Part shown: piece by piece, positions 37,555 to 63,377 of the stretch
How positions within the stretch are numbered: the first letter of the stretch is position 1
Layout of the letters: each line of letters begins with the position of its first letter
Position numbers and translations under genes: made by a program
From: Rhynchopus sp. YZ270_cl-10
Taxonomy: Eukaryota
Reading direction: 5' to 3'
NCBI GenBank assembly: GCA_964035575.1
Contig: OZ037844.1
Coordinates: 1,674,001 to 1,738,000, forward strand
Length of the DNA: 64,000 nt
The notes under the pieces: generated by a model
Databases searched by the model: none
Told to the model about the DNA's origin: nothing
Seen by the model: only the letters and a program-made list of their open reading frames with translations

Positions 37555-38164
37555 GTCTCCTTGGGATCGAGCGAGCTCAACGACAGTGGTAAACTGGACC
37601 CAGCACTTTGTGTGCCTTGGCTGCCATAGTTTCTTTTGCACTTTCAACTTCACTTTTTTATCGTTTCATAATTTGATTCCGCCCCACCCACTGCACCCCA
37701 CCCCACCCCATTCCTCCGAACAGTGTTCGGTTGTTTTGAAAGACGTGTCAGTCAGCACAGACCGTCTTTTTGTTGTCGCATTTAGGATGTGCAAAAAGAG
37801 CGCATTCAGTTTAGAGATTTTTCTTGTTTTTGTTTTCTTTCAACCTGCAAAGCAACACAGTCCGAAGAGGGTGTTCGATAACCCCACGGAGTCTCACTGC
37901 TGCTTATCGGAGACGTTTTTGCACCTTTTCCACCCAATATTTCCCCCTGTCGGAATGGCCCACTAGGCAGGGAAGAGACCTCAGTCTCTTCCCTACTTAG
38001 TCTGTGGCCTGATTTTACGTACTTTCGTCATTTCTTTACAGAATATCCCCACAAGCGAGGATCCTCCCCATCCCCCACCTCCACACTGTTTTTGATAACC
38101 ACTGCGATTCCCACCAGTCTCGCGCACCACAACACTGCACCACCTCAGCTTACCACCTGACAAC

Positions 38165-38647
38165 ATGGGTGACACACACGACCTGCATGGACTGGCGAAG
38201 ACCTCCGGTGGTGTGCGTCGTGCACGCTTGGGTGACGACAAGGTGCGTGCCTTGGGGCGGTGTCATAAGTACCTGCGGTGGACGGGGTGCATTCCTCCGG
38301 ATGCGGAGATCGAGGCGATGACATGTCGCAAGAGGCACGATATTTTGGTGAAGACAACGGGGTCTGCTGCTGTCTCGTGTGCAACATATGACCGTATTGC
38401 ACGCACACGGCGCAGGGCAGCGCCTGCAGCAGATGTGACCTGCACCGGTGCCTATCAGGGAATGACGCACCGTATCAGCACCATGGTCGACAACGCAGCA
38501 CCGTGGAGCCATCACAAAGTAAAAGGCAAGCGCGGTCGCAACAGAACACGCCCCCAAAAATACTCCGATGGGTCGTGCAAGTACTGGAACCGCATGTGTG
38601 CCAGCAGGGTTAACCGCGCAGAGGCAGTCGAAGAAGGCAGTCGATGA
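38165..38647 (+). CDS. Hypothetical basic protein
   Basis: 160-aa ATG ORF with host-like composition and a CA-rich leader like neighbouring genes. No recognisable domain. Confidence 0.4.
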   Translation: MGDTHDLHGLAKTSGGVRRARLGDDKVRALGRCHKYLRWTGCIPPDAEIEAMTCRKRHDILVKTTGSAAVSCATYDRIARTRRRAAPAADVTCTGAYQGMTHRISTMVDNAAPWSHHKVKGKRGRNRTRPQKYSDGSCKYWNRMCASRVNRAEAVEEGSR

Positions 38648-39149
38648 CCAACCTCGTTCGGGCGGAAAACTGTGTGTCTGGATTGTGGTGTGAAGTGTCT
38701 AGACTGTGATGTGTCTCGGTGTTTGTGTGTTTGAAAAAGATTGCTTCCATGATATGTGTATGTGTGTGCATCGTGGTTGTTTTGTTCTATTTATTTTGAA
38801 GGGTGTGTACAAAGCCACATCTATCCTGCCTGCTTCATTTTTCCCTTGGGTTTAGCATTTGCAGCTTCCATTTTTTTAGCCGTGACTGAAGTCCGTGAGT
38901 CTGAGGTTTACATCAACGTTTCTCTTTTTTTGACACTTTTGACGTGTCTTGAGTGGAACCTCCACTCAAGTGTACCCTGCAACGCTAACCCAGCAGCGGT
39001 CCTCGACTGCACAGTAAAGCGCAAGAGAGACCTGTTCCCGTACTTTTGTTTCTCTGGAAAACAACTTTGCACCTCTCCCACCGCCCTTCACGTGGACAAC
39101 ACCACCTGCACAACAGGCAAACGAAACACATACGAAACACCTTTACACC

Positions 39150-41800: not shown

Positions 41801-42848
41801 TGCTGAGGCAGCCGCAGCAATACACCGTTTTGTATTTCAAGTGAGATGTTTGTATTCACCGAAATAAATCCATGGTGGTTGACACCCTCTCAGGCATATG
41901 TTGCTTCAGGAGTATATAGTTATTTCTCCTCTGATGCTCTTTTTCTCTGATGTGTGATGCGCGACACGTTCATCTTTCAGTTTCTTTTGTTCTTTGTTTT
42001 AATAGTTGACTAGGCACGAGAGGCTTGGTATCATGTTATAAACATTTCTTTGTTTTTGCACATTGCTCTCATCGTTTCATGACATTGTTTTCACTATGAT
42101 GGATCTTTGAAGTTTGCGGAAGATCTTTCCAGAAATTGTGAATTTGTTTGAGATTTTCACACATCTGGACGATCATGTTATTTGTGTGGGTTTTTCGTAT
42201 TCCAGACACATCTTTTGAGGGGAAAAAAACGATCTCTTCCACAAGCTCTGATCCTTTTTGATATTATCACTGAATAGCATTTTTCAACGCGTTTTGTGAA
42301 CTCGGAACAGGTTTATTTCTGTGAAAGTGTCGGGATGTGTGAGCTCGCAAATGGCACATCTCGTATCACACAATAGACCTGTTGCGAGACACAGCCAACA
42401 CTGACTCCTCAACTGGTAAAAGAGCCTGTCGAGAGGGTCAGTGTTGGTGCTTTCGTTTCTTCTTCCGTTGCGATGTGCGTCCGTATGGTGTCAGGCGGTC
42501 TACCTGGCCTGAAATACACGTAGCTTTTTAGAAGCTGACCAACACGGCGAGTGTGGTGCGAAACACATTCATTTTTATTGATGTTCTTTTATTATCCAGT
42601 GCCTGCGTCCCGCCGTTGAACGGTGAGTCGTTTGCACTTTCAACTTTTCTTTATTGTTTCCCTCTCCCCCCGTTAAAACCGTTTCAACGTTCTTTGCAGA
42701 AAACCCCGTTTGCAAAAGAAAAAAAGGTTCGGTGTCTACTTTCTAGAAATAAGCAGAATGAAATACCCCCCATTTGTCGTTTGTTGTTTGTTGTTCGCAT
42801 ACATCCTACAAAAATTTCCACACAGCATTTTTCCTTAACAACCAACAA

Positions 42849-44732
42849 ATGAGGCCCATGTGTGCGATGCTACTGGGTGCCCTCTCACTCAGCAGAGGTG
42901 CCACTGCGCAGTGTACCTCAACGCAACCGTGGTGCAGTGCATTCACGCCTGTTCCGGCACCAGGCGGCGTGTTAGGGGCCCTGTGTACACTATCCCCAAC
43001 TTGCCAGACTCGTCCGCTGGACTGGCAAGTGGAACGTGTTCTGGAGCAGCACAACCTGTACAGGGAAAAGCACGGAGCATGCCCCATGACGTACAGCACA
43101 GCCATTGAAGACTACGTTATGACCAGCCCCGCCTTCCAAGACATCTGCAACACCGGCAGCCTCAAGCACAACACCGGCAATTCCTATGGCGAGAACATTG
43201 CCATGGTGGGTACTTCCGGTGCTACGAACATTGGTCTGTGGGATGCGGCTGAGGCTGTGAAGAACTGGTACTGCTTGGAGGAGAACTGCTATGATGGTGC
43301 ATTCTGGTCACAGATCCTGCGCTTCTCTCAGGTGGTGTGGAAGGATTCACTCCAGATCGGGTGTGGTCTGTGCTCTGTCGACACCCGCATGTACATCATG
43401 TGCAATTATCATGTGAAAGGGAACCACGTTTCGCAGTTCGGGAGCCAGGTCGGAGCACCAGGGTCAACAGCGACAGGGTGTGCAGTGCCTACAGCTGTGC
43501 CAACCTTCGTTCCCACAGCACAACCAACTTCAGTGCCGACAGCTGTTCCCACTTCAGTTCCAACAGCAATCCCGAGAGCAGTACCCACAACTGTTCCGAC
43601 ATCCATGCCCACTGCAGTGCCCACAGCTGTGCCAACCTCCGTTCCCACAGCACAACCTACTTCAATGCCAACAGCACAGCCCACAGCAATTCCTACATCA
43701 GTCCCAACAGCAACCCCGACAGCGCAGCCCACAGCTGTTCCACCATTCATGCCCACTGCAGTGCCGACAAGCGCCCCTTCTACGTGCACAGACAAGGACA
43801 CGATTAAGACAACGTGCCCACGGAGCCTGCCTGACACATGCCGCTTCAAGGTGCAGCACCAAGAGAGGGTGCTCTCTGTTGCCTTCTCGAGCGACGGCAC
43901 GCACTTTGCCACTGGCAGCGACGACGGTGTGCGTGTGTTTGAGATTGCAACAGGCATGCAGACGCTGAAGCTTGCGTGTGCAGACTTTGCTGTGCACGAC
44001 GTTGTGTTCTCGCCGGACGCACTGTCGGTTGCAGTTGCAGGTGCGGGTGGACGTGCTGTGGTGTGCGATGTGGCAACGGGAGCACTGCGGTACGTCCTGC
44101 ACAACCTGGGGAGCAAAAGCACGCCGATACGCAAGGTAGCGTACTCGCGTGTGGGTGGCCTGCTTGCGGGTGGGGGTGGGAACGCGCCAAGCACACGTGT
44201 TGTGCGTGCAGACGACGGTGCCTTGGACCTTGTCATCCATGCGCATGCGCGCAACGTGGCGTTTTCGCCTGACGGAAGTCTGCTGGCAACTGTGGTGGGG
44301 AGTGAGGTGGACGAGATTGTGCAGATATGGGACGTTGCGACAGGTGCGAAGGTGGGCACTGTTGTCTCTGAGGGTGCGCGTGTGGTGTCTGTGGCGTTCC
44401 TCTCTGGCGGTGAGCTGCTGCGTGGGATGGACAGTGGTGCCGTCCTTATGACGCGTTGGGCAAGCGGGACTGTCGGTGTGGGTGTCGCGACAGTGTCAGC
44501 AGCAGTGTCGATGCCCTCTCACGTGTTGCACCACGCTACGCCCTCTGCAGACGGGCAGCTCTTTGCTGCTGCAGGCCCTGCTGAGGTCGTCGTGTGGACG
44601 GCAGCAGGCACTGTGCACACACGCCTTGCAGGCCTCGACTCAATTGTGGCTCAGGTGTCCTTCTCCCCCGACAGCAGCCTTCTTGCCACTGCCGGGCACG
44701 ATGGGTCGCTCCTTGTGTGGTCTCTTGTGTGA
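42849..44732 (+). CDS. Secreted CAP/SCP + PT repeats + WD40 protein (copy 4)
   Basis: Paralogue of 31372-33240 with a diverged CAP domain and a near-identical WD40 region. Confidence 0.88.
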   Translation: MRPMCAMLLGALSLSRGATAQCTSTQPWCSAFTPVPAPGGVLGALCTLSPTCQTRPLDWQVERVLEQHNLYREKHGACPMTYSTAIEDYVMTSPAFQDICNTGSLKHNTGNSYGENIAMVGTSGATNIGLWDAAEAVKNWYCLEENCYDGAFWSQILRFSQVVWKDSLQIGCGLCSVDTRMYIMCNYHVKGNHVSQFGSQVGAPGSTATGCAVPTAVPTFVPTAQPTSVPTAVPTSVPTAIPRAVPTTVPTSMPTAVPTAVPTSVPTAQPTSMPTAQPTAIPTSVPTATPTAQPTAVPPFMPTAVPTSAPSTCTDKDTIKTTCPRSLPDTCRFKVQHQERVLSVAFSSDGTHFATGSDDGVRVFEIATGMQTLKLACADFAVHDVVFSPDALSVAVAGAGGRAVVCDVATGALRYVLHNLGSKSTPIRKVAYSRVGGLLAGGGGNAPSTRVVRADDGALDLVIHAHARNVAFSPDGSLLATVVGSEVDEIVQIWDVATGAKVGTVVSEGARVVSVAFLSGGELLRGMDSGAVLMTRWASGTVGVGVATVSAAVSMPSHVLHHATPSADGQLFAAAGPAEVVVWTAAGTVHTRLAGLDSIVAQVSFSPDSSLLATAGHDGSLLVWSLV

Positions 44733-45873
44733 TGCTGAGGCACAAGGTGCAACCGGCTAGGGTTAGTTTTGCACCGTTTTGAGAGGAATCAGTTTTTGTC
44801 GTGTAGACGACATTTCTTCACTGTCAGGAGAGGGATTTGCATTTCAACTCAACGTTCTTTTCTCTGATGTGTGATGCGACACGTTCATCTTTCAGTTTCT
44901 TTTGTTCTTTTATTTTGTTTTGTACATTGCTCTCATTGTTACATGAGATTGTTTTCACTATGATGGTCTTGAAGTTTGCGGAAGATCTTTCCAGAAATTG
45001 TGAATTTGTGGATTTTCACACATCTGGAGGATCATGTTATTTGTGTGGGTTTTTCATATTGTTCACACATTTTATGTGACAAAAAGATCTCTTCCACAAG
45101 CTATGATCATATATGATTATTATTGAATAGCATTTTTCCACGCGTTTTGTGAAGTCGTGATACGTTTATTTCTGTGGTGGGAAGTGTCCTGTATCACAAT
45201 AGCTTCCTGCCCTTCGAGAGTAGCTTTTTAGAAGCTTACTAACACGGCGAGTGTGCTGCGAAGCACAGTCATTTTGTTGATTTCTTTTTATTTTCCAGTG
45301 CCTGCGTCCGCTGTTGAACGGTGAGTCGTTTGCACTTTCAACTTTTCTTTATTGTTTCCCTCCCCCCCAAAACCGTTTCAGCGTTCTTTGCAAAAAAAAA
45401 AAAATAGTGAAGACTGCCTGAATGGCAGCTACACTAAACAAACAAATTACGAAGAAAAAAAAAAAATCTCGCACACGTCCAACCAAAAATTTATTATTTC
45501 CTCGCTCATGTGTCACCCTGGGAATGTGGAACGTTCCCCAAGCTGCTTTCGGTATGACGAATCACGCCATACCTTCCAGGGCAAAGGCTTCGGCCAACAT
45601 TGCCCCTGTGATCTACTGAGGTGGGTGCTGTGTCGACAACGAACCAGTGCCTGACGTTGAGGGTTCCCGCAACTTCCAAAATACGACCATTTTACCTTAT
45701 GGCGGCTTCCTACCCTTCCCAACACAACACAACCCCTCCAGAAAACGTACACGGCGGTCTGTTATTTAAACTACTAACGAGTGTTCTCGCTTTAGCCGTT
45801 AAATTGTTTATTTTTCTTCTTTTCTCGGGGCTGTGCGTCATCTGGCAAGCTTTCTTTCCCCTCATCCAAAGCA

Positions 45874-48792
45874 ATGCCGCGGGTGCACGTGCCTGTTCTG
45901 GGTGTGATCGTTGTGGCAACACTGCTGAGCACATCAGCATCGCTTGCGGGTGGGCTGTTGTTGTACTTTGAAGGCCTCAACTCACTGGAGGCGTCTGTGA
46001 AGGAGACAAGCAGCGGTGAGCTGCACGCACTGCACGAGAGCACACATGTCCTGCTAGCGCAGACGCAGGAGTTCCTCTCCGTCGCGCACACATTCCTCTT
46101 CTCGCACGAGCGCGTGCACGGCACTGACCCAGAGGGCTGGGCAGACACGACACGCCTGCTGTGGCAGGCACAGCTAGCAGGGTCTGCGTTCCTCTACCAC
46201 TGCACTGTGCACGTACACCCACAACCACACGACAACAGCAGCGCTTTCTTTTCTCGTGTATGGGGCGACGTGGATGACGGTGTGCGTATCGTGCGCCACG
46301 CGCGCCTGGAGGAGGACCACGTGGCCAGGGCGTATGCACTCGACCCTGAGACAGGCTTGGGTGCGGCTGTGGTGGGTGAGTGGGACGAGGAAGCGTCCTT
46401 TGCGCAGTACCCCGTGACGCTACTCAACCCTGCTGCGGGTGTGTACCCGGACCTGGCTGGGAGTGCTGCGGACGTGGCAGGTGCGGCAGTGTCGTGGTGG
46501 GGTGCAGCAGTCACACACCGTCGCTCTGACAGTCACGTTGGTGCGCACTCAGACCTGGTTGCGGTGTTTGCCCCGCCACCCGCACCACATCCGTGGAGTG
46601 CACACCGTGCGGTTGTGCTGCAGGTGGGCTTCCTCTACGACGCGATGAGGCCTGCGTTCAGTGCGTACAATCGCGCACGGCCCGACACCACCGTGATTGT
46701 TGTGTGCACTGCAACAGGAGCTGTCCTAGCCACCACTGCAGGAGTGCCTGTCGTGCCGCAGTGGTGCCAGGGACACGACACACCACCCCACAGCGACATC
46801 ACGCAAGCGGCAGGCGCCTGTATGCACAACATCTCAGCACTCACGGGCGTGGAGCGTGCAGCGTACGAGCACCTCACAGAGGCATGGGGCAGGTGGGACT
46901 TCAAGCGTGCAGACCTCAACGGTGATGCGTACTACATGCGTCGTGCGCGATTTGGGCACAACTGGGAATTTCTCTGGCTGCGCCCTGTCGCAAGCGTGGA
47001 GGGGAAGGTGCAGGATGCTTTAGTGCTGCTCATCGTCTTCACAGTGTTGGTGCTTGTGTTCGACGCGTCGATCTCGGTAACGGAGGTGGGCTTCATCGCC
47101 CTGCCTGTGCGTCGTCTTGCTGCGTCTGTAGCGGCGGCAGGGAATATGAACACAGAGGAGGCTGCCCAGGCGATCGCAGGCTATGAGTCGCGGTGTGTGA
47201 TGGTGACGGAGATGCGACAGCTGATGAGCGGGATGGCTGTTGCTGTGGAGCAGTTGCGTGTGTACAAGGCTTTTATCCCTGAGGCTGTGTTCGCAGACGG
47301 CCACAACACACCGCACGTCGCGCACGTGGTACGGCACAGTTCCTTGCATGCTAACAGCTCCGTTGTGCCTGGTACAGGGTCCAGCGAGGCAGCAGTCGTG
47401 TTCACCGACATCAAGGGCTCGACGCTGCTGTGGGAAACCGTGCATGACAGCATGCGTCTGGGCCTACAGCGCCACAACGAGGTGGTGCGAGCGTGCATCG
47501 CTGACTGGGGTGGCTACGAGGTCAAGACGATAGGAGACGCGTTCATGGTCGCCTTCGACACGCTTGACAGTGCGGTGCTGTTTGCACTGGCTGTGCATGA
47601 ACGCCTTGCCTGTGTCGAGTGGCCAGCGCAGCTCCTGGAGGCGAACGGCGGGGAGGGTCTCGTCCTGCGCGTAGGTGTTAGCCACGGTGCGGTGTCCGTG
47701 GAGTACCAGGAGGCGTGGGCGTGCCACGACTTCTTCGGCACTACCGTACACAAGGCTGCACAGCTTGAGGCGATGTGCGTGCCAGGTGCAGTCGCGGTGG
47801 CGACGGAGTGTCTCGACAGCGTAGCTTCCCTGCTCCCGAAGTTTGAGGTCCTGGACATGGGAACCCGCACTCTGCGCGGGCTTGTGGACCCGATGGCAAT
47901 ATCGTTTCTCATACCACGTTCTCTTCCCGCCAGAGCAGAGGAAGTGAAGCGCTCTGCGCAAGGCCGCAACCCTCTCTGCGGGCGTGCCTGCAAGAAGCCC
48001 CTCAGGGCGAAGAGCATGAAGAGCCTCAATCACGCGAAGGACGTTCTCGAAGTGGCCGAGTCTGCAACCACTGGGCACCTCGAGCACCTTGTCCCAGGGG
48101 ATACCTCGTACGAGGTGACTGTTGTGCTCAATGCAGCGCTCGTGAAAACAATGGCCAGTCTTGAGCGGAGTGACGGGAAGATCATCACCGTGCTTGGGTC
48201 GGCAGTGTACATGGGGTGGAACGTGCTGCAGGCGTGCTGCAGCCACACGGAGAAGGCCTTCAGGTTCGTCGGGCTCATCACAAAGAATTCAGGAGAGACA
48301 AGGATACGTTGCGGGATAAGCTCTGGTGGGCGTGTGATGGCTGGGAAGATCGGCACTCGTGGGCAGGGCTTCTTCACTGCTATCGGGGTTCCCATGAGGC
48401 AATGTTCCTGGCTCCTGTGCAGGTGCGAGGCCTTTGGAGCTGACTTCCTGTACACGTCGGCATCGCAGCTTGCGGTACAACAGCTGTGCCTCAAGGGGCG
48501 TATCCGTCCCCTGGAGGACACAGCGCTCATGGGCATGCAGTTTCGCGTGCACGAGGTGCACTGCAGAAGGATACGTGAATGGTGCAGAGATAAGTCGGGT
48601 GCGTTGCTGTCCACGGGTGCGAACACCGGTGCCGTCATCGACACCACCGAGGACGGGTCGTACACACATGAGACGTGCTGGTCTGCGACGTACATGAGGG
48701 CCTTCGACGAAATGAACATGTCTGTGCTCTCTTCCTTAGCAGGCATCGACCCCGTCATCGATAAGGTGTACCAGAGACTCATAAGAAGGTAG
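45874..48792 (+). CDS. Receptor-type class III adenylate/guanylate cyclase
   Basis: N-terminal TM segment, extracellular domain, second TM segment (LVLLIVFTVLVLVF), cyclase motifs VVFTDIKGST, YEVKTIGDAFMVAF and DFFGTTVHKAAQLE, then a degenerate second cyclase-like domain. Confidence 0.88.
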   Translation: MPRVHVPVLGVIVVATLLSTSASLAGGLLLYFEGLNSLEASVKETSSGELHALHESTHVLLAQTQEFLSVAHTFLFSHERVHGTDPEGWADTTRLLWQAQLAGSAFLYHCTVHVHPQPHDNSSAFFSRVWGDVDDGVRIVRHARLEEDHVARAYALDPETGLGAAVVGEWDEEASFAQYPVTLLNPAAGVYPDLAGSAADVAGAAVSWWGAAVTHRRSDSHVGAHSDLVAVFAPPPAPHPWSAHRAVVLQVGFLYDAMRPAFSAYNRARPDTTVIVVCTATGAVLATTAGVPVVPQWCQGHDTPPHSDITQAAGACMHNISALTGVERAAYEHLTEAWGRWDFKRADLNGDAYYMRRARFGHNWEFLWLRPVASVEGKVQDALVLLIVFTVLVLVFDASISVTEVGFIALPVRRLAASVAAAGNMNTEEAAQAIAGYESRCVMVTEMRQLMSGMAVAVEQLRVYKAFIPEAVFADGHNTPHVAHVVRHSSLHANSSVVPGTGSSEAAVVFTDIKGSTLLWETVHDSMRLGLQRHNEVVRACIADWGGYEVKTIGDAFMVAFDTLDSAVLFALAVHERLACVEWPAQLLEANGGEGLVLRVGVSHGAVSVEYQEAWACHDFFGTTVHKAAQLEAMCVPGAVAVATECLDSVASLLPKFEVLDMGTRTLRGLVDPMAISFLIPRSLPARAEEVKRSAQGRNPLCGRACKKPLRAKSMKSLNHAKDVLEVAESATTGHLEHLVPGDTSYEVTVVLNAALVKTMASLERSDGKIITVLGSAVYMGWNVLQACCSHTEKAFRFVGLITKNSGETRIRCGISSGGRVMAGKIGTRGQGFFTAIGVPMRQCSWLLCRCEAFGADFLYTSASQLAVQQLCLKGRIRPLEDTALMGMQFRVHEVHCRRIREWCRDKSGALLSTGANTGAVIDTTEDGSYTHETCWSATYMRAFDEMNMSVLSSLAGIDPVIDKVYQRLIRR

Positions 48793-50492: not shown

Positions 50493-52260
50493 CTACATCC
50501 AGAGTGAGTCCATCAGAACTTCAATGTGGTGCGGCAAATCCCCCTGTACGTAATCTCTTCCCTTGCTCGGGTCTGCCACCAAAAAAGGGCTAGTTTGGCC
50601 CCTCGTGAGCCCATCCGCCCGTTGTTCGCCTGTCGGAACCCATGTAGCGGATGCTGTCAACTGCGCTGCTTCACACGTACGGTACAGCGCGCTGAGAATG
50701 AGGTTTGCCGCGTGGTTCTTCGAGTGACCCTTGTTGATGGCGGCCACCACAGCAGCATTGTCTATCATCAGGTTTACGCAGGCTCCCCGCACTTCAACCA
50801 CTTCGACAGTTAAGCACACCACACGGAAAGCCGCCAAAAGTTCTTTTAAAAAGATATGTGTGGACTTAGCCTGGCTGAAAAGACCCTTCAACGCCCACTC
50901 CTTTCGGCCTGCTCCGGGGTTCTCCACAATACACCCCCATGCCGGCGTGCTTGCATCGGACCACGCGGTGATGGTGTGAGTAGGTGTCGATGCGGCTGGG
51001 CGGTATGCGTTCTCCCGACACTTGTACCAGAAAGCGTCCAGTTCATCGCGCACGCACCTTGTGAGGGTAATATCCTTGTCCCACAGTGTCACGTCCACCG
51101 CCAGTTTACGGGCCAGTGCGCTCAGGAACGAAAGTAGGCCGCTGTAGACACACAGTCTGTGAGTTTTGCAGTAAGAACACCACACCAGCGATCCCAGCGT
51201 CTTGTAGAATTGTCGCGCTGTGCATATGCCTGATTTTGCCGCTTCGAGGTGCTTTGACTGCGAGAGTTTACACAGCCACTTCTCCGACATACGAAAGGTT
51301 CCGTTCTGCAGATCGAACTCCAGGCCCAGTGCTACAAAACGCTGCAGCGGTCTGCCGAACTCCGGGTCCGAATTTAACTCCAAACGTATGTTCTTGCAGC
51401 GCTGGTCAAACACCTCGAAACGGGCCCTGCATTGTTCTTCCGAATCACCAAGGATGAACACGTTGTCGATCCAGACGATTGCGTAAGGCCCTGCCAAAAG
51501 AAGAATTGCCCGCTGGACGATGCACGGTGCGAACTTCCATCCCATGGGCAAGACCTTCATCTGCATGGTACGGTGGTGGCCCCTCTGTCCGCCTAGTTTC
51601 ATCGCAAAATAGGGGCGGATGTCCGTTGACAATTCAAACTGGAAGAAAGCGCTTTTGACGTCCGTCATAGCCACCCACTTTGCATCCAGCATACGTTTGA
51701 TGACCCCCGGCATAGTTGGTAAGTTGCAAGGAGGCGGGCGGACCATTTTGTCGTTTAGAGCTGTGCAGTTCAAGATGAAACGCCCCCCCCCCCGAGCTTT
51801 TCTCCACTACAAAAGCCGGCATGGCCAGTACCGGTTTTTCAGAAAACTCCGCCACATCGTATTTACGGAGGTCATTTACGTGCTGTCGCATGTGCTTGGA
51901 CACAACATTTACCGTCGGCGCGTCTTCATCAGGTAAGAACAGGGATAAGAATTTGTCTTTGTCTCGCAAAACATCCAGCGTTCCCTCAAGTGCGTTATCA
52001 GTGTCCAGAGCCTTCAGAGCGTCCAAATCGATCCTGTTCATGCTGATGGGAGCCAGAGCCAGGTCAGAGGGCAGGTGCGGCGCTTGGACATCCCGTATAC
52101 ATCCATCGTACCCCGGTTCCACAAAAGGTCCAAACGTATATTTATCGTCGTCCTCATCTGCGGGTACGGCGTAACGCACTTGACGCAGGGCATCCACCAC
52201 GTCGGTCCCAATCTTCCGGCCTGTGGCGTGAGCGAAATGAGGGGTCAGAGACAAGCTCAC
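50493..52260 (-). pseudogene. RT-RNase H of the minus-strand element, with one frameshift in a G11 run (51783-51793)
   Basis: Removing one G gives KSSGGGRFILNC and joins ORFs 51634-53457 and 50493-51773. Motifs TDVKSAFFQF, LPMGW, WIDN, WSDAS, IDN and RADGLTR. Confidence 0.85.
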
Positions 52261-53201
52261 AGGGACAGGGCCTTCGAAAGTCTGGCTGTCTCGGTGTTGA
52301 TCTCCAAAAGCGCGGAAGGCGCGTAGTGGAGCAAGCTCTTCAATGTTTTGTGTCTCGTCAACGACATTATCTCCTCCAAGCTGTGACCGCCCTGGATCAG
52401 GCAGACTACTGCTCCTCTTCGCAGCGAGTGTCCCTGCAGACTGGCATTTGTTTTTCTCATGTGTCGTATCAGGCGTTCCTTCGGGTCCGGAAAAAGAGGC
52501 GAGAGCGGCGTTGTCGCCGCGCACAACAGAGCAAGCTGTGACCGGGCTGGCTCGCCCAGGCGTACCCCCGTCGTCATCCCCTCGCGGAAGGGGTCGCTCT
52601 TGCTTCCGCTCCAGTCGATGCACACGAACTCCTCCCCCTCTGGAAAGGTGAGGTTCTCGCGAGTCAGACGCAGAGTATCTCCGAGCCTGGCCGCTGCAGT
52701 CCACGTGATTTGTAACGCTAGTCGTATATGTTGGCTTGTGCAGGTCTCCAGAATGTTCCGCATCTCCTCTTTTGTAACAGGAGGGGCCTGTTTGTGTGGT
52801 CGAAGAGCGCCCCCCCGCTTGAGACTTCGCTGCAGGTCCCTTAGCACCACCGAGGATGCCTCCAGCAACCCTCTTCGTCGCCCCCAAGCGAGGCATGTGT
52901 TTGAGTATTGCAGCCGTGACGATGGTTTTATATGCCCTTGACGTACTATCCAAGTGGCGATGGTTATGTCCCACGGTAGCAGTTGCCCTGTCGCTTCCTG
53001 CCACTGCGTCCGGAATAGTTCCACCCTCCGTCCGACACTCCGTTGTTGGGCCCATGTGCTTGGTGCCAATGCTCCGCCGAGTTGTGTCTGCAGCATCATC
53101 GTCAGTTTTTCGGCTTCGGTCTCTGTGACTGTCGGCTCCACGAGGCATGGACGTCCTCGCAGGTTCTTGGGGGTGGGTTCCAGAATACGAGACAGGGGCA
53201 T
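52257..53201 (-). CDS. Tyrosine recombinase of the minus-strand element
   Basis: TAAARLGD, GSKSDP, HSLRRG and TRHKTLKSLLHY motifs. ATG at 53201 follows a pyrimidine tract. Confidence 0.88.
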   Translation of the reverse strand: MPLSRILEPTPKNLRGRPCLVEPTVTETEAEKLTMMLQTQLGGALAPSTWAQQRSVGRRVELFRTQWQEATGQLLPWDITIATWIVRQGHIKPSSRLQYSNTCLAWGRRRGLLEASSVVLRDLQRSLKRGGALRPHKQAPPVTKEEMRNILETCTSQHIRLALQITWTAAARLGDTLRLTRENLTFPEGEEFVCIDWSGSKSDPFREGMTTGVRLGEPARSQLALLCAATTPLSPLFPDPKERLIRHMRKTNASLQGHSLRRGAVVCLIQGGHSLEEIMSLTRHKTLKSLLHYAPSALLEINTETARLSKALSL

Positions 53202-53688
53202 TGTGTTGGGAAAGGGAGGGGATTGGGAGGGGTTGAGTAGGGGGAAGGGAGGGGGGGACAACGTTGTGGAGATTACTTGGTTCCTTTTCCACCCTTTCCG
53301 CCCTTTCCGCCCTTCCCTTGCCTGCGAAACGGACGCTGTTTTGCTCCTCCGTGGGGGTTGTTCTTTTCCCTTCTGCGGGCTTCTCGGTGGGCGCTGCGCA
53401 GGTACTCCGGCTGGTCGGTCCCGCCACACACTTCGTTTTCCACGATGAGCGCTGCATCCCATCTGCCTTCCATATTGCCCATCTTCAGTGCCTCCAGACG
53501 CCCAAATGCAGCTTCGCCGATGTCCTGCAAAACCTTGTCGGCAGCGTCGCCATCGTCCGTCAGACCGATGTGTGTTGCTACCATCCCGAGGATTCTGAGG
53601 AGGCTGTTGGTTTCTCCCTTGGCTGCCTTCGAGCAAGGACCCTCGGTCAGGCACCTGAATTCCTCTCGGAAAGGAATCAGGCCCCGTT

Positions 53689-54753
53689 GGGGTTCATTTA
53701 CGGGGTTCATTTTTTTTTACGGGGTTCATTTTTTTTTACAAAAGGGGTTCATTTTTTTTTACAAAGGGGTTCATTTTTTTTTACAAAGGGGTTCATTTTT
53801 TTTTACACAAAAAACTATGTTAAGACGAAATCCTACCGATGTGCCTACATGGGGCGTCCCCCGTCAGTAGTGCGCCAGATGAGGGGCATGAAGCGAAATG
53901 CGGTGAAAGGTGCAGGCCTGTTCGCAGCAGGTCTGGAGAGTTGTGGCAACTCGTCTGCTGAGCGTGTGAAGTATCAAGGCAGAGGTTCGCTGTCCAAGTA
54001 AAACCTACCCTGGTCATCCTCTGCCTGTCTTGTTCTCTGTTGTGATTGTTTGTGTTTGTGGGCGGGATCAGATGGGTGGAGGGTGTTTACTTTGTGTTTA
54101 GCTCGGAGAAGTGGCTTACCCGCCCACTCTCTGTTATTTATTCAGTGTCATTTTTTCATTCATCCCCAAAGTTTGTAGACAGAGTCAAGGCCACCTTGGC
54201 CAAAAGGGTTTTTTCACCACACTTTTCTTTTGCTTCCATTCGTGGAAGTCTTGTTTTTCTTCTGTTCCTGGCCTGACGTGTGTTCAACAGGTGTGCTATT
54301 TTTACCAAGTGGAATCCATTTTTCTTTTTCCAGGGGAGGCACTAAAACAAACCATTCTGCAGACAACAAAGCAAAGGCAATGTGTTTTTTATTCTCCCTT
54401 CCCTTCTTTTAAGTAAGGAGGATTAGGTCTTCTTTTTTTTCCTTTTTTTGCCCCAGAAGTGTGACGCCTGTGTATTCAAATTGATTAAAAAGAATAAAAA
54501 ACAAACACATAATGCAGTTTCTTGTTTTGTATAAAATTCTGTTGGCTCTTCCGTACTCTTCGCCCGCCTTTTATACAAAACTTGAAACACCGACCATTTT
54601 TGGTCATCATTTTTTCCTTTTCATTTTTCCATTTCCTTTTTCCTTTTCCATTTCCTGTTCATTTTATTGTCTTTATTGTCTTCTCCATTTCTTCCTTTTT
54701 CCTTTCTATTCTCATAAAAAACTAGTCCAAGTACAAAAAAGAGAAAAAAAAAG
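53689..54753 (+). mobile_element. Non-autonomous A-tailed retroposon (SINE-like), copy 1
   Basis: Near-identical to 55820-56787, with five tandem GGGGTTCATTT..AC units at the 5' end. No matching TSD. Confidence 0.8.
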
Positions 54754-55819
54754 AAGTCATCGAGCAGCACCTGACGATAGCAGCAACTCCAGCGGCGGCA
54801 GCAAAGGCGGCGGCAGCACCACCTTCAGAGGTATCGGCTACTACTACTACAGCTGCAGTAGTGGCAGCTTCAGCTCGAGCACGGGCACTGAAAGCAGCGG
54901 CAAGCAGAGCTGGGGAAGTAACCCCAGTGGGGTCAGCGGCAACGGGACCTACTACAGCAGCGCCAAAAGCAGTGGCTATTTTTTGCGGGATAGTGGCGGG
55001 GATGTGGGACGCTCTGATAGCAGTGGTAGAGGTGGCAGCAGCAGCAGCAGCAGAAACAGCAACCACAGTAACAGCAGCAACAGCTACTACAACAGCAGCT
55101 GCTACAGTTTCGGCTACAGCAACTGCTACAATTACTACTGCAGCAAGAGCGAGAGCACCTGCAACTGCAACTGCAACGACTACGGCATGAACAACAACAG
55201 CAACTGCTACAGCAACAGCCATCACTGCTGCAAGAGCACCAGCAACAGCACCAACAACTGCACCTGCAACAACCGCAAGAGCTACAACTACAGCAGTTAC
55301 AGCAACTGCAGCAGCCAAGGCTGGAGTGAGAGAGTGGGTGCAGGCGGTGCCGGGCATGGTGGAGGCTCAGTCAGGAGTGGGTATGGAGTTTTAGACGGCG
55401 ACGATGATGGCCCCCGCCCCCCCGGCAGCAGCAGCTCCTTCAGCCACAAGAACCTCAGCAACAGTCTCCTCAGCGGTGGCAGCGGGAGCCCCCTTCCCCC
55501 CCATTATTACCCCATAAAGAGGCCTTTTGAGCCCAACAACCCAAGCAGCTACAGCTTTGATAGCAGTAACAAAAATTTTTGTGGAGGCAACACAGCAAAA
55601 AACTGTTGTCATTATAGACCACACCCCCCTCCCCCCCATGATAACCCCAAAAAGAGGCACGGTATGCCCAACCATTTCAGTGGCTGCAACTGTGATAGCA
55701 GCAAAAACGTACTCCTCGGAGTCCTGGGTAGGGTCCCGGTATCACCCCTGGCGTGCAGCAGCGGTAGCAGCACCACCTACAGCATCAGCAACTGCAGCAG
55801 CAATAGCACAAGTGTATCT

Positions 55820-56787
55820 TTTTTTAGGGGTTCATTTTTTTTTACACAAAAAAATATGTTAAGACGAAATCCTACCGATGTGCCTACATGGGGCGTCCCC
55901 CGTCAGTAGTGCGCCAGATGAGGGGCACGAAGCGAAATGCGGTGAAAGGTGCAGGCCTGTTTTGCAGCAGGTCTGGAGAGTTGTGGCAACTCGTCTGCTG
56001 AGCGTGTGAAGTATCAAGGCAGAGGTTCGCTGTTCAAGTAAAACCTACCCTGGTCATCCTCTGCCTGTCTTGGTTTCTGTCGTGATTGTTTGTGTTTGTG
56101 GGCGGGATCAGATGGGTGGAGGGTGTTTACTTTGTGTTTAGCTCGGAGAAGTGGCTTACCCGCCCACTCTCTGTTATTTATTCAGTGTCATTTTTTCATT
56201 CATCCCCAAAGTTTGTAGACAGAGTCAAGACCACCTTGGCCAAAAGGGTTTTTTCACCACACTTTTCTTTTGCTTCCATTCGTGGAAGCGTTTGCTTTTC
56301 TTCTGTTCCTGGCCTGACGTGTGTTCAACAGGTGTGCTATTTTTACCAAGTGGAATCCATTTTTCTTTTTCCAGGGGAGGCACTAAAACAAACCATTCTG
56401 CAGACAACAAAGCAAAGGCAATGTGTTTTTTATTCTCCCTTCCCTTCTTTTAAGTAAGGAGGATTAGGTCTTCTTTTTTTCCTTTTTTTGCCCCAGAAGT
56501 GTGACGCCTGTGTATTCAAATTGATCAAAAAGAATAAAAAACAAACACATAATGCAGTTTCTTGTTTTGTATAAAACTCTGTTGGCTCTACCGTACTCTT
56601 CGCCCGCCTTTTATACAAAACTTGAAACACCGACCATTTTTGGTCATCATTTTTTCCTTTTCATTTTTCCATTTCCTTTTTCCTTTTCCATTTCCTGTTC
56701 ATTTTATTGTCTTTATTGTCTTCTCCATTTCTTCCTTTTTCCTTTCTAATCTCATAAAAAACTAGACCAAGTACAAAAAAAAAAAAA
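55820..56787 (+). mobile_element. Non-autonomous A-tailed retroposon, copy 2
   Basis: Poly(A) tail and a 12-bp TSD ACAAGTGTATCT at 55808-55819 and 56788-56799. Confidence 0.9.
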
Positions 56788-57982
56788 ACAAGTGTATCTA
56801 TAGGCGCCTACAGCAACACCAGCTCCTGCAGCGACGCCAACAGCAACAGCAATGACTACAGCAGCTGCAGCATCAACATCATGGGTGACGGTGTGAGAGG
56901 TATGCTGGTGTTCGGGGACAGCCTTGAGGGGCTTGAGGGTCAGAGTTGCTGTGTGACGATGCGGGTGTGGCGGACCTTTCTCACCCCCACTTTCCAAAAG
57001 GGGAACGTAAAGTTAGAGCTATGGTTCGACTGGTGGTGCAACCTCTGGGAGGTCTTCACCTCCTTGCGCCAACCAGACCCCTGCTGGGTAGCCGAGGCAC
57101 CTGAGTGGGGAGTGTTTGTGTCTTTCGCGGTCCTGGATCTGTGGAAGGACAGACGCGCCCCCACCCTCAGTCTCCTCCTTTTGTGGCTGGTGGGTAGGAG
57201 GAGGCCCAGGAGGTTGTGCAGGGGTCCCCGGTCTTTGAACTGGGCCAAAGCACAGGCGGGTAAGCTCCGTCGGCGCAAGCTCCGTCGGCGCAAGGCGCCC
57301 TGCAATCGTCCGCCCTCTCCGTTCGCACCCGCAGGTTCCCGCAGTTTCAGGGGTGCTGACGCTGTGAGAGGGGCAGTGCAGTGTGCGGCCATCTGGGTAC
57401 TGGTGGTTGTGGGCTCTGAGCTTGGGAGGTCAGCGCCACATGCTTTGGGTTGTGTGCTGTTTCGGGACGCGGAGTTGCTGGGGGTGGGGCTGCTGCGGGG
57501 ACTGTGCAGATTACGCAGGGGAGGGCGGTGGCTGGAAGGGGTGAGCGAGCGAGTGCGCCGATGGACCGGAGGGATCCGAGTGGCTGCCAGCTTGGTGAGG
57601 GCCAGTGTGCTGAGGGTGAGTCAGTTTTCGGTGAGTGCGGCCGGGTGGGTTTGGGTTGCATGGTCCGCAGGCGGTTTTTTGGCGGGTGTTGTGGCACTGG
57701 TCGGTGTCGCGCGCCCACTTGGCTGGGTTCTTCTCTTGGAGGTGTACCGTGTGGCAACACTCATGTGGACTCGTAGGATCGGGATGGCTTTTGGCATGCT
57801 GGCCTTATCCCTACTGGTCTTGCTGTCACTGTTGTGGCGAGCGGTGACGCCCTGGGACCTGCTCCCTGCCCCTGCTGATCCGAAGCACCCGATAGGCTTG
57901 TCCCCGTACGCTTTGTCGGGCGGCTGTGCGAATAGGGAGTCGCCTGCGTACCATGCCGACGCCGTGGTAGTGGACAGAGTCC

Positions 57983-58515
57983 GCAAACCCTTTCTTTTGC
58001 TTCCATTCGTGGAAGCGTTTGCTTTTCTTCTGTTCCTGGCCTGACGTGTGTTCAACAGGTGTGCTATTTTTACTGAGTGGAATCCATTTTTCTTTTTCCA
58101 GGTGAGGCACTAAAACAAGACATCCTGCAGACAACGAAACAATGGGCACGTGTGTTTTTTATTCTCCCTTCCCTTCTTTTAAGTAAGGAGGATTAGGTCT
58201 TCTTTTTTTCCTTTTTTTGCCCCATAAGTGTGACGCCTGTGTATTCAAATTGATTAAAAAGAATAAAAAACAAACACACGATGCAGTTTCTTGTTTTGTT
58301 TAGGAGGAAGTGGCCACTTACTTTACTTTACCGCCCACCTTTTATACTAAAACTTGAAACACCGACCTTTTTTGGTCATCATTTTTTCATTTCCTTTTTC
58401 CTTTTCCATTTTCCTGTTCATTTTATTGTCTTTATTGTTTACTCCATTCTTCCTTTTTCCTTTCTTCTATTCTCACATACAAAAAAAGACCAAGTACATA
58501 AAAGAGAAAAAAAAA
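57983..58515 (+). mobile_element. Non-autonomous A-tailed retroposon, copy 3 (5'-truncated)
   Basis: Matches the 3' half of copies 1 and 2, with an 11-bp TSD GGACAGAGTCC at 57972-57982 and 58516-58526. Confidence 0.88.
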
Positions 58516-61500
58516 GGACAGAGTCCTGACCAGATACGGAGCCCAGCGGAACGTCACCTCCTCCACCAACGACTGCGGATACCTGGCGTTGCATTACTGG
58601 GATAGCGTAGCTCAGCCGGACGTTAAGGCCCTGCGCAAGGTGGTTGTGGATGCCGCTACGTCGGTGCCCGATAGGATGGTTCAGGTTTTGGGAAGTGGAC
58701 TGGCCGTCACGGAGTTTGTAAACGGTGTTTCAGGCACTGCTCACCTAAATCACATGGGGCTCCAGCTCTTCGCCACTTCGCAGCAGAAGAACATCGTGGT
58801 GGTGCAGGCTAGTGAGGACGACCCGCTGGTGCTCATCTCCCCGGGGTGCCGTTTCCTGACGGCCGCGGCCATTGCTAAGTTCCAAGACACGTTGGATACA
58901 GTGGTCATCAGCCTCTGCGGCTCGCATTTCGAATACGTGTCCGTAGGGGCGGACAACGCGAATTCGAAGGAGTCCGTCGCATGGAAGATGCGTAAGGCTG
59001 CGCGAGACGCCGTTTTGGACCCGGCCCAGAAGATCGGCCCCATCCCCACCACCACCAGGACGACGGCGCCCCTATCAACTAAGTTGGGGAACATCAACGC
59101 CGAGCGAGTGTTCTGCCCCTTCGACAAGTGCCGCCAGGGAATCCTGTCATCCTTCAAGGGTGAGGGGCTGTGCAGGAAGAGCATCCTGGACCACATGCGC
59201 CGGCACCAAGCAGAGGACTCTTATGTGTCGGACGACCTCCTCGGACACCTCGGGATGGCCCGCTGCGCCAATGATCAATGCGACAAAATCATCCCAGGTT
59301 CTAGAGAGTGGTGCAACCTATGTGAGGTGGCTTTTGGCGAGGCGGGTTTCACGGCCCCGGACCGACGTGATCGGGGCGGACTCACGGCCGAAGATGACCT
59401 CCCTACTTTCGAGGCTATTGGCACCACGCGTGTGCAACTCAAAGGGGGCTGTCCGGAGGCTTACCTTGAGCAGTATTCGCGACTTTTCCTGAAGGTTTTG
59501 CTGGACATACTGTCACACCAGGACGAGCTCGCGTGGAAAAAATTTGCTTTGTTTTTCACGGTCCTCCACAGAGTGCGGTCGGATCGAGGGGGGGAGGGGC
59601 AGGCCAAGCGTCATTCTCGCGGTTGGGCGAAGGATTTGCAGCTCTGGGAAGAAGGGAAATTCGTCACTTTGTGGAACGACACCGTTGAGGGCCGCAAACC
59701 TCCTGCTGCGTGGACTGACGGCGATACCGTAGAGGGGAAGAAGAAGCGAGCGGTGGCGAAGGCAAGGGCGGGTCTGCCAAGCCAGGCCATGACGAGCGCC
59801 ACCAGCGCGGGTGTTGCCCCCCACACGAAGGTGACTTTGGAGAAGCTGGAGGCCAAGCACCCCTCACCCGACGCCGATCCGGGGGTTTTCGATTGGCCGG
59901 ATACAGTTGACGTTCCGCCTGTGACGCCGCTTGAGTTGATGAAGGCCATGCGCAGCATGCCGCGATCGTCCGCAGCTGGCCCCTCCCACGTCACGGGAGC
60001 TCACCTCCGTACCCTCTGTTTGCAGCGTCGGGCTGGGTCTAAGGGCGCTCTAGGGGCCTTGGCGGCTGTACTCTCCTCGCTGGCCAAAGGGGAGGCCCCG
60101 CCTGAGGTGTCCCATTTCCTGGCAGGGGCGAACCTGGTTGCTTTACGGAAGTTGGCAAAGACTCCCGATCAGGAGGAGGATGTGCGGCCCATTGCCGTTG
60201 GAGACACGCTCAGACGGCTGGTGGGCAAGATCCTGGCGACTCGGGTGCGTACTCAGTCCCGTTCCATCTTCCTCAGGGGGAACCAAGTGGGAGTGGCAAT
60301 GCCCAGGGGTACTTCAGCGGCGGCGGATGTCATTGCGCAGTACGCAGAGCGCCACAAGGAGGATGACAAGGTAATCCTCAAAATAGATTACCGCAATGCC
60401 TTTAACAGCATTGATCGGACCGAGATGCTTCGCGCCGTGGATGCACACCTCCCCGAGCTGGCTCCCTGGGTGAGGTGGTGTTACATGTCTCCATCTTGCC
60501 TTTTCTTCGGCGAGGCCATCGTGAGGTCACAGAGGGGGGCTCAGCAAGGGGACCCCCTCGGTCCTCTGCTGTTTGCCCTCACCATACACCAAATGACGTT
60601 GGAGCTCCGTAGTGTGCCGGACTTGGATGGTACGTTGTGGTACCTGGACGACGGCTCCTTGCGTGGCCCCCCAGAGGCGGTGTACAAGGCATACCAGATT
60701 CTGCTAGAACGCAGTGTCCGCCTGGGTCTGGAGGTGAACGAGAGTAAGTGTGAGCTCGTTGCGATGGGGGGTCTGACGGCGCAACAACTTGGACAGGTCG
60801 GCTTTGTGATCCGGGACGATAAGCAGCAGGGAGGGGAGGGTTTCAAGCTGCTAAGCCACACGGGTTTCGAATTTTTGGGTCTGCCGATTGGAACCAGTGC
60901 GTATTGTGAGGAGTACATGCTGGTAAAGATGGAGACAACGCGGTCTAACCTCAGGGCCCTCATCGAACTGGATGACGCGCAGGTGGCGTACTACATCCTG
61001 CGTTACTGCGAAGGCTTCTGCCGCATGGTTTTTTACATGCGTGGGGTGACGGTGGTGGCCACAAAGTACCTGGGGATTTTCGACGAGGAGATCGGCAAGT
61101 GCCTCGCTGCCCTCCTGCACGACGCTCACGGTAGCCTTCCGCAGCTCGCCAGGGACCAGGCTGCCCTCCCCATTGCAATGGGAGGTCTAGGGATACGCAG
61201 AACCCGGGATCACTGGTCGGCAGCAGCTCTTGCGTCCCAAGCTGGGAACTTCCAGTTGGCGCAAACCCTCGACCCACAGTACGCCTGGGATGCTCTGAGA
61301 TGGAAGCATGCTGTTTCAGACTACAACGAGAGGGTGGACCTGAAGTACAAACTCAACACAGACCAGCCCACCCAGCTCCCTGTCCAGCAGAAGCTCTCGG
61401 CGGCTATTGTTGATGCGCAGGCAGACAAGCTCATGCTGGCCTTGAGCACGAGGGACCGTGCCCGCATGAAGTCCCTTCTCCTCCCCATGTCCGGGGCGTA

Positions 61501-62246
61501 CCTCACAGCGATCCCCTCCAACGCCAACATGTTGGAGAGCACCACCTTTGCGGCGGTGACGCGTTTCCGGCTAGGAGTGGCCATCCATGTGCCGGACTCC
61601 GTCTGCTCTTGTTGCTCTGGTGCGGGGACGCAACTTAAGATGGACGCGTATGGGGACCACTCCTTCGCCTGTTCCCACAGGGGATGCAGAATCCGCCGGC
61701 ATGATGCCCTGAAACTTGCTCTGGGGGAGGCCGCGACAGGTGCTGGTCTAGGCCCGGTGATCGAGCAGCGTACAGGGGAACCAGGTGAGGGTGGCCAGCG
61801 ACCAGCTGACATTTACCTGCCAGGAGGCGTATCTGAGAGCGCGCCGCGGTGTTTGGATGTGACCCATGTCGCCCCGACCCTGCCCTCCTACCGCCGGCCC
61901 GCTGCGAAGTTTATTGGGTGGACGGCGAAGACTCAAGGTCAGAGGAAGAGGGAGAAGCACGAGTTGTACTGCCGGCAGCACAGGATGTCCTTTTCGCCGG
62001 TGGTGTTTGAGGCCTTTGGCGGAGCTGGGGACGAGGCGAATTTGCTGTTAGCTCAGCTGGGTGGTCTGGCAAAAGATGTGTCTTCCCGTCTGGTGGGGTC
62101 GGCTGAGACGCGTATCCGCGAGCGGGTAGCTATTCGCTATCAGAAAGAAGTCGGTGCCTCTTTCCTGCGTAGGGGGGCTTTGTGCTTGGGGATTTCGACC
62201 ATTGGTTCCCACAAGGAAAGCGGAACCCCGGAAGAGACGGACCCAC

Positions 62247-63166
62247 AAACCCGCAAACCCGCAAACCCGCAAACCCGCAAACCCGCAAACCCGCAAACCC
62301 GCAAACCCGTAAACCCGCAAACCCGCAAACCCGCAAACCCGCAAACCCGCAAACCCGCAAACCCGCAAACCCGCAAACCCGCAAACCCGTAAACCCGCAA
62401 ACCCGCAAACCCGCAAACCCGCAAACCCGCAAACCCGCAAACCCGCAAACCCGCAAACCCGCAAACCCGCAAACCCGCAAACCCGCAAACCCGCAAACCC
62501 GCAAACCCGCAAACCCGCAAACCCGCAAACCCGCAAACCCGCAAACCCGTAAACCCGCAAACCCGCAAACCCGCAAACCCGCAAACCCGCAAACCCGCAA
62601 ACCCGCAAACCCGCAAACCCGCAAACCCGCAAACCCGCAAACCCGCAAACCCGCAAACCCGCAAACCCGCAAACCCGCAAACCCGCAAACCCGCAAACCC
62701 GCAAACCCGCAAACCCGCAAACCCGCAAACCCGCAAACCCGCAAACCCGCAAACCCGCAAACCCGCAAACCCGCAAACCCGCAAACCCGCAAACCCGTAA
62801 ACCCGCAAACCCGCAAACCCGCAAACCCGCAAACCCGCAAACCCGCAAACCCGCAAACCCGCAAACCCGCAAACCCGCAAACCCGCAAACCCGCAAACCC
62901 GCAAACCCGCAAACCCGCAAACCCGCAAACCCGCAAACCCGCAAACCCGCAAACCCGCAAACCCGCAAACCCGCAAACCCGCAAACCCGCAAACCCGCAA
63001 ACCCGCAAACCCGCAAACCCGCAAACCCGCAAACCCGCAAACCCGCAAACCCGCAAACCCGCAAACCCGCAAACCCGCAAACCCGCAAACCCGCAAACCC
63101 GCAAACCCGCAAACCCGCAAACCCGCAAACCCGCAAACCCGCAAACCCGCAAACCCGCAAACCCGC
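62247..63166. repeat. (AAACCCGC)n octamer array, about 115 units
   Basis: Perfect array apart from AAACCCGT variants at 62310, 62390, 62550 and 62798. Confidence 0.97.
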
Positions 63167-63377
63167 ACTAGAAGAAAGCTCGCTAAAATGTAGGAGGCTG
63201 GTGTGGTTGTGAACAGAATTTTTTTTTTATTGTATGAAGGTTTTGCATTTTTACAAATGTGAAAGCCGAAAAAATTGAATAGAAAAATGAATTGAACTTG
63301 GCTCACCCCTCATTTCTCTTTTCATAGCATTTGTGTACTCACACACCAAAAACAGGTGAACTATTTCTCAAGAAACT

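Follow-up and report, generated by a model that had tools for sequence, protein, structure and literature searches.

We have analysed a stretch of 64,000 nucleotides (nt) of the genome of Rhynchopus sp. YZ270_cl-10 (contig OZ037844.1, positions 1,674,001 to 1,738,000; referred to as the window), with emphasis on an apparently CRE-like retroelement without long terminal repeats (non-LTR element) that lies on the forward strand between 54752 and 62392. Its parts follow one another in the order hydrophobic leader, Gly-Gly motif, predicted OTU-fold cysteine protease domain, zinc finger, reverse transcriptase (RT) and endonuclease. The open reading frame (ORF) is interrupted by insertions that resemble short interspersed nuclear elements (SINEs), and the stop-free segments between these insertions will be called pieces. 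Piece A (54752..55819, + strand) is a Ser/Gly/Asn/Tyr/Cys-rich open frame of 356 codons, with its first Met at 55187 and of uncertain coding status; piece B (56800..57981, +) reads as a Trp/Arg-rich hydrophobic leader of 394 codons, with Met at 56881 and 56902; and piece C (58526..62392, +) has 1,288 codons plus a stop. When the insertions are left out together with one target site duplication (TSD) each, the three pieces share one phase and read through 2,038 codons without a stop, as had been proposed in the initial annotation, the coordinates of which all proved right (IGMAFG.. at 57778, LSGG at 57913-57924 and 55469-55480, Cys at 58574 and His at 58925).

The insertions belong to a set of three related SINE-like copies that are 97% and 88% alike. 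Copy 1 (53690..54751, +), with a reiterated GGGGTTCATTT.. 5' end and a poly(A) tail, directly precedes the open frame; it is 97% identical to copy 2 over 987 nt, and no TSD was found at its ends. Copy 2 (55820..56787, +) lies within the ORF between the two halves of an exact 12-nt TSD, ACAAGTGTATCT (55808-55819 / 56788-56799). Copy 3 (57983..58515, +) is 5'-truncated, starts with one CGCAAACCC unit and is flanked by an exact 11-nt TSD, GGACAGAGTCC (57972-57982 / 58516-58526). The label SINE-like is based on the poly(A) tail, the TSDs and the multiple non-coding copies only, the last being reflected in a summed contig depth (which is not copy number) that in runs X1 and X4 exceeds the depth of the RT region tens to hundreds of times. 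No tRNA was detected in the insertions, and no Rfam match reached the gathering score, although decayed heads can escape such detection. As an aside, the N-terminus of protein P0002 is a translated SINE-like tail joined into the second OTU domain of a sister family, and therefore this SINE hits these elements repeatedly.

The openness of the frame exceeds what chance would give. In simulations with Markov models of order 1-4 the given frame was open in 0 of 1000 cases for piece A as well as for piece B, and a codon-box test expects 7.7 and 6.7 stops, respectively, where none is observed. In the window copy as it stands, the frame of A meets a stop at 55907 (in copy 2) and that of B at 58042 (in copy 3). 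Removal of the insertions as spliced introns is ruled out, as GT..AG is found in 0 of 13 and 0 of 12 registers on either strand, and the first Met of piece C comes after the catalytic Cys. Because of these stops, the missing splice registers and the position of that Met, the window copy is most likely dead.

Uninterrupted copies are found elsewhere. Contigs of four public runs from four studies were aligned to positions 53000-62300 (the best-matching run is possibly the window's own source). The joint without copy 3 was seen in three of the four runs (sides of 32, 32 and 109 letters) and the joint without copy 2 (55807>56788) in two, with a side of 30 letters, slightly short of the bridging advice of the tool. 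The depths of the two SINE-free joints in X1 (363 and 649) are of the same order as that of the RT region (~790), depth again not being copy number. Moreover, the sister family P0001, a cluster of 48, reads in one uninterrupted chain from the leader through an LTGG motif, the protease and the zinc finger into the beginning of the RT, so that the leader is indeed present ahead of the protease in uninterrupted relatives. In 8 of the 15 listed sister-family proteins a single chain contains LTGG, Cys and His together with the last hydrophobic segment; the other seven are fragments of other parts. Three sister-family fragments (P0016, P0017 and P0022) and P0018, in which the Cys region is missing, were not counted as families, and P0021 (E 1.1e-5), a polyketide synthase, was dropped as a false match. 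A search of RNA data gave no RNA with the sequence among the matches listed.

Piece C opens with the predicted OTU-fold cysteine protease domain (58526..58950, +), with Cys at 58574, His at 58925 and a Glu at His+2. An AlphaFold2 model built from a seven-row alignment has a mean pLDDT (per-residue model confidence) of 59, the OTU part reaching ~51-88 per block and being higher in the core. The 30 Foldseek rows listed for this model represent OTU domains throughout, with OTUD3 at the top (E 3.2e-5, TMt 0.75), and VIA-align, a Foldseek-free search of 48,161 chains, gave OTUD3 with Z 13.6 and a root-mean-square deviation of 2.3 Å over 129 of 141 residues. In addition, the nearest ESM Atlas clusters have OTU in 19-20% of their members (score 0.94). 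Thus, the model predicts an OTU fold, in line with the protease that the initial annotation had suspected. The catalytic Cys and the H[FY][ED] motif are kept in all six families, at a Cys-His spacing of 110-117, even though the OTU cores are only 28-37% identical among families (58% between the window and the sister family). The D-x-x-C motif that had also been expected is absent from the window domain, which reads S-T-N-D-C; an Asp at Cys-3 occurs in one of the six families (P0058). In fact, the motif is not required for the activity of an OTU fold, because the protease PRO of turnip yellow mosaic virus (TYMV) also lacks a complete oxyanion hole (PMC3968130). A sequence search of the PDB misses the protease, and a profile search returned P0019 only.

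The candidate cleavage site LSGG (57913..57924, +) is located 36 residues before the catalytic Cys. At 33-37 residues before the Cys, a motif [L/M]xGG is present in four of the six families (LSGG at 36, LTGG at 36, MQGG at 33 and MRGG at 37), amid flanks that diverge among families. The chance of such a motif in a 5-position window is ~0.005 per family; as the sequences of the window and the sister family cannot be treated as independent here, about three independent cases remain. The two LSGG sites of the initial annotation did not fare equally. Two LxGG in A and B together are at chance level (P of at least two, 0.17), so that only the conserved site at 57913 counts and the one at 55469-55480 was rejected as a cleavage site. 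The linker of ~17 residues between the Gly-Gly and the domain is predicted to be disordered (pLDDT 27-32 for the LTGG linker in the sister-protein model), and would be long enough for cutting in cis.

Upstream of the motif the nature of the leader has to be considered, and here one could argue that the region before the Gly-Gly is mostly a GC-rich 5' untranslated or promoter module that passes between families and is open owing to its composition. The protein would then start near the motif (~1,300 codons here, ~1,840 in full relatives) and have no anchor. In line with this, piece B is more alike between families than the part from OTU to RT (71-88% per 50 residues against the P0003 family, versus 42-79%), it was not recognised by the ESM Atlas (no hit; low recognition, 1064), and P0042 and P0057/58 have been called from the Met of the motif. 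Nevertheless, piece B has a GC content at third codon positions of 0.72, like the RT region and piece C, and differs from the sister family by 42 amino-acid changes in 224 residues, where 53 +/- 4 are expected under neutrality (P 0.003; dN/dS, the ratio of non-synonymous to synonymous change, at least 0.47, on the assumption that the X5 contig belongs to the P0003 family). All three indels listed for B in the contigs of the public runs are multiples of three, and no Met lies between the motif and the Cys in the window or the sister family. Furthermore, P0019 and P0023 have in-frame leaders of 300-570 residues with the same Trp/Arg/hydrophobic make-up as B. Homology of these leaders to B was tried and is not significant (scores of 55-95 versus shuffle maxima of 84-105). 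Piece B is therefore probably protein, with modest selection, and an untranslated leader is in our view improbable. The higher likeness in B than in protease and RT suggests a recent exchange of 5' modules between families.

For piece A the evidence is divided. It is covered to a depth like that found over the RT, and a deletion variant of 786 nt, which is common, joins A to B in frame and so weighs against an untranslated module. On the other hand, five of the seven listed variants are non-synonymous and two synonymous, one of the two listed junction variants shifts the frame, and the gene calls of the sister family begin only at the equivalent of 56902. A +1/-1 indel pair, considered as a rescue of the frame, creates a stop instead on the letters of the window. 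Thus, the first 356 codons may be untranslated.

The hydrophobic segments of the leader (57655..57837, +) culminate in IGMAFGMLALSLLVLLSLL(W) at 57778-57837, a predicted membrane helix that is preceded by RR. This segment has a Kyte-Doolittle 19-mer value of 2.47, against 1.7-1.95 for three weaker ones; the same peaks occur in the sister family P0001, and the sister-protein model has a helix there at pLDDT 60-67. The membrane-like segments of the initial annotation are therefore present and kept, be it that only one of them exceeds 2.0. The membrane anchoring of the leader, as predicted from hydropathy alone, is a weaker point of our reconstruction.

Downstream of the protease a Cys/His cluster (59114..59323, +) probably forms the N-terminal zinc finger(s), CPFDKC..HMRRH and CANDQC..CNLC, with only weak Pfam matches. 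The RT core (60173..60886, +) contains QQGDPL at 60542 and YLDD at 60641 and matches Pfam RVT_1 with E 3.3e-19; the only solved relatives found are L1 ORF2p and R2 proteins, in 10 of 10 rows. The CCHC knuckle and restriction-like endonuclease (61604..62200, +) show RHD, E, RPAD and LDVT in the order of the SLACS/CRE consensus. All endonuclease residues are in order, with three spacings outside the consensus quoted in the available text of PMC12857005 (second Cys to His 14-15 versus 7-8, Cys to RHD 8 versus 9-10, and the last 15 versus 12-14). The assignment as CRE-like is suggested by these motifs, the tree described below being composed of unnamed relatives.

The ORF lacks a stop codon of its own and enters a (AAACCCGC)n array (62245..63167, +; 923 nt, 111 exact and 4 variant units), where it ends at a TAA at 62390 that is made by a variant unit, so that the last ~50 of the 2,038 codons are read-through of the repeat. 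Joints with (AAACCCGC)n are also seen for the tails and heads of SINEs and for a sister copy that is cut at the zinc finger (P0004). No TSD was found around the whole element in the window. The array, which separates the element from unique DNA, may represent the telomeric repeat of the host (G-rich strand TTTGCGGG), here in an internal position. Two contigs extend 35 letters past 62244 off the array, a hint that other copies go on.

The relatives, too, suggest that the protein does not end here. P0012 of the sister family and the four RT relatives nearest to the window (38-52% identity) continue for 331-994 residues beyond the end of the window alignment, and in four of these five the endonuclease is followed by a domain with the motifs G-D/A-C ... 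W-A/S-D ... H-Y/F. The fifth, P0026, matches in part; its second domain seemingly lacks the catalytic Cys and His motifs. Judged by these motifs, by a sub-threshold Pfam OTU match (E 0.033 in P0027) and by hidden Markov models (HMMs) built partly from the same proteins, the second domain is probably OTU-like. Both OTU-type domains flank the RT-endonuclease in P0042, P0044, P0057 and P0058. The relatives with both domains are 1,565-1,846 residues long and have a Cys-rich zinc finger after the second domain (a weak FYVE match in P0007/P0012); a conserved Gly-Gly ahead of this second domain was not found in them. The window copy has lost the second-OTU tail or was cut before it. As the relatives carry the second OTU-like domain, the ~2,040-codon polyprotein of the initial annotation, although open throughout, is probably not the whole ancestral protein.

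In a quick tree of 81 rows, one branch (SH-aLRT 99) separates the seven RTs that bear an OTU from all others; the tree included one Symbiodinium 'unnamed protein' and left out 17 of 80 metagenome loci that were too short or frameshifted. Small HMMs detected an OTU domain on the RT strand in 0 of 80 distant JGI loci (28-41% identity), where 17 of 77 RT frames had at least 150 upstream residues; one partial OTU match (E 0.009) lay on the opposite strand. Viral contigs gave no match. Other CRE-like RT proteins have processing-like leader ends of other types, WRLRGG in P0029 and 2A-like in P0031, P0037 and L004. P0029 and its cluster members P0072 and P0073 carry, before the RT, a ubiquitin-like stretch ending in WRLRGG (identified by eye) and an MLLE domain (E 3.5e-6). 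The leaders of P0031, P0037 and L004 end in IGEA(S/Q)(K/H/N)PGP; we take these (N/H/K)PGP leaders to be 2A-like. The 2A reports consulted concern mostly elements with an apurinic/apyrimidinic-type endonuclease (APE-type).

We propose that the element encodes a CRE-like non-LTR polyprotein in which the OTU domain cuts after the Gly-Gly to free the RT-endonuclease from the leader, a reading to which we assign a probability of roughly one half. An intact element would give rise to one precursor consisting of the hydrophobic leader, [L/M]xGG, the OTU-fold domain, the zinc finger, the RT and the endonuclease. By analogy with viral OTU proteases, the N-terminal OTU would cut after the Gly-Gly, and the OTU-zinc finger-RT-endonuclease product would thereby be released from a leader predicted to be membrane-bound. 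The freed product could then perform target-primed reverse transcription, for which (AAACCCGC)n is a possible target. The leader itself might be an ORF1-like part that has been fused in frame. The second OTU-like domain of the relatives would act as a deubiquitinase, since no conserved Gly-Gly precedes it. There is precedent for such processing: the protease PLP2 of equine arteritis virus (EAV) and TYMV PRO are OTU-fold enzymes that cut their own polyproteins in cis and in trans (PMC3968130), and coronavirus PLpro, which has another fold, cuts at LXGG (PMC7464072). The membrane-anchored, self-cleaving precursor of the initial annotation is thus partly supported, namely by the predicted OTU fold, the single ORF from leader to RT in relatives and the fixed spacing of the Gly-Gly, whereas its D-x-x-C is missing.

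Several observations weigh against self-processing. The motif is missing at its place in two of the six families (TCAV in P0023 and MDGE in P0057/58), and P0023 is closely related to P0019, in which the motif is present. Two of the six families have a called protein that begins with the Met of the motif itself, and a leader is seen only in the remaining ones. The window domain has no Pfam OTU match (PF02338) at gathering score, and the match in the relative P0020 is likewise below the cut-off (E 0.2). The points raised above with respect to the leader, i.e. the family assignment behind its dN/dS, its insignificant likeness to P0019 and P0023 and its single segment above 2.0, count on the same side.

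The fold points in another direction as well. Its closest counterparts (OTUD3, OTUD1, Otu2 and the nairovirus OTUs) are true deubiquitinases and nairovirus domains, and the processing enzymes are more distant (TYMV PRO Z 6.0, EAV PLP2 Z 3.0). The domain could then be a plain deubiquitinase that protects the protein or its ribonucleoprotein particle against degradation, or edits ubiquitin at the target site, with the Gly-Gly as a flexible hinge and no self-processing. The families that lack the Gly-Gly agree with this. In addition, the OTU of Crimean-Congo haemorrhagic fever virus (CCHFV) heads the L protein that contains the RNA-dependent RNA polymerase and yet does not cut it (PMC3968130), and the same role has been proposed for the OTU domains of Ginger1 and Helitron (PMC2836005). 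A plain deubiquitinase leaves unexplained, however, why an [L/M]xGG stands at fixed spacing amid divergent flanks in four families, and why a second, motif-less OTU-like domain is kept in the same protein. Moreover, TYMV PRO shows that one enzyme can combine the two activities. We hold the deubiquitinase explanation to be possible, though rather doubtful.

Alternatively, the Gly-Gly might be cleaved in trans by another enzyme, either a deubiquitinase of the host or the OTU-like domain at the C-terminus, and the N-terminal OTU would then be a binding or weakly active module. This would fit P0029, where a ubiquitin-like stretch ending in RLRGG precedes the RT and no OTU was detected, as well as the lack of a D at Cys-3 in the N-terminal domain of the window. 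The motifs of the C-terminal domain, G-D-C / W-A-D / G-H-Y, look more canonical. Yet the Cys and His are kept in all six N-terminal domains, and no ubiquitin-like fold can be recognised ahead of LSGG, where a hydrophobic helix is predicted to be followed by disorder and B had no ESM Atlas hit. Cutting in trans thus appears quite unlikely.

If self-cleavage is true, polyprotein maturation, and possibly membrane tethering, would occur in a non-LTR element, and cleavage would define where the working RT-endonuclease begins, which is relevant to tool builders. Non-LTR elements are generally regarded as acting through a single ORF that is not processed. The conserved Gly-Gly beside the enzyme constitutes a candidate natural substrate, so that the question of self-processing versus deubiquitination can be addressed on a fragment of 200-250 residues. 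More speculatively, and with more doubt than conviction, we envisage a repeat-targeting lineage that expresses its proteins in the manner of positive-strand RNA viruses, with a membrane-anchored polyprotein, an N-terminal OTU that cuts at a ubiquitin-mimicking [L/M]xGG, and a C-terminal OTU with zinc finger that strips ubiquitin from the enzyme or from target chromatin. In that case two proteases of the same fold would divide the labour around one replicase.

The remainder of the window contains host genes and other mobile elements. A gene for CNOT1 (19913-24238) and one for a receptor-like nucleotide cyclase (45796-48789) are present, and the host is therefore eukaryotic. Signal-peptide-like genes that match CAP, PT-repeat and WD40 make up a tandem family at 26968-44729. 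A further RT element, which has an RNase H-like domain (RVT_1, RVT_3), is present twice, at 9136-12258 and 15556-18675, and is adjoined by long CTCTCCCCC-type tandem repeats. On the reverse strand a DIRS-like element (50493-53693) has an RT frame (RVT_1, E 3.9e-12) and a tyrosine recombinase frame (E 6.4e-5). It is cut at ~53691 by SINE-like copy 1; at 53691 the sequence of a DIRS contig departs from that of the window.

Proteases of the Ulp1, Josephin and OTU classes recur on transposon proteins, and in the cited papers their role is only guessed. NeSL and Utopia-1_TSP also have an N-terminal cysteine protease before the RT, but of the Ulp1 class (PMC4640811), and Dualen/RandI has an N-terminal ubiquitin-type protease as well, but a Josephin (PMC13405545). 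An N-terminal OTU has been noted in one sentence on the ORF2p of Symbiodinium necroappetens, in a 2A-bearing and mostly APE-type set with a second RT (PMC13405545). The available text of that paper describes no Gly-Gly motif, hydrophobic leader or second OTU for this protein. In the open literature searched, we came across no non-LTR element described with a conserved Gly-Gly site, with two OTU domains or with a hydrophobic leader, and the accessible parts of PMC4455052 and PMC6875170 contain nothing on such elements. What appears to be new here is the Gly-Gly motif at fixed spacing together with the second OTU-like domain in relatives. A Repbase CRE entry from Monosiga is said to carry an OTU domain; our literature search did not retrieve it.

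With CRE1/2, SLACS, CZAR, Cnl1, MoTeR and FoTeR the element shares the single ORF, the zinc finger(s), the RT and the C-terminal CCHC with RHD/E/RP(A)D/D (PMC12857005, PMC3636483). At its 3' end it adjoins short tandem repeats that are C-rich on the sense strand, just as FoTeR abuts TAACCC (PMC12857005, PMC3636483). The ORFs of FoTeR and MoTeR are ~1,150-1,184 residues long, and a protease is not mentioned in the available text (PMC12857005); the element analysed here adds the OTU domain and a leader of 390-750 codons, and its relatives add 330-990 residues past the endonuclease. Fusion of an OTU to a replication enzyme is likewise seen in Ginger1 and Helitron/Helentron, but these are DNA transposons with one OTU (C-terminal in Ginger1), for which the accessible text proposes no processing site (PMC2836005, PMC6431247). 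Finally, EAV PLP2 and TYMV PRO, which combine processing with deubiquitination, and the CCHFV OTU, which is a deubiquitinase only, share with our element an OTU fold in a polymerase polyprotein (PMC3968130), whereas here the polyprotein is that of a retroelement, the candidate site precedes the protease and the predicted fold is nearer to the cellular and nairovirus OTUs.

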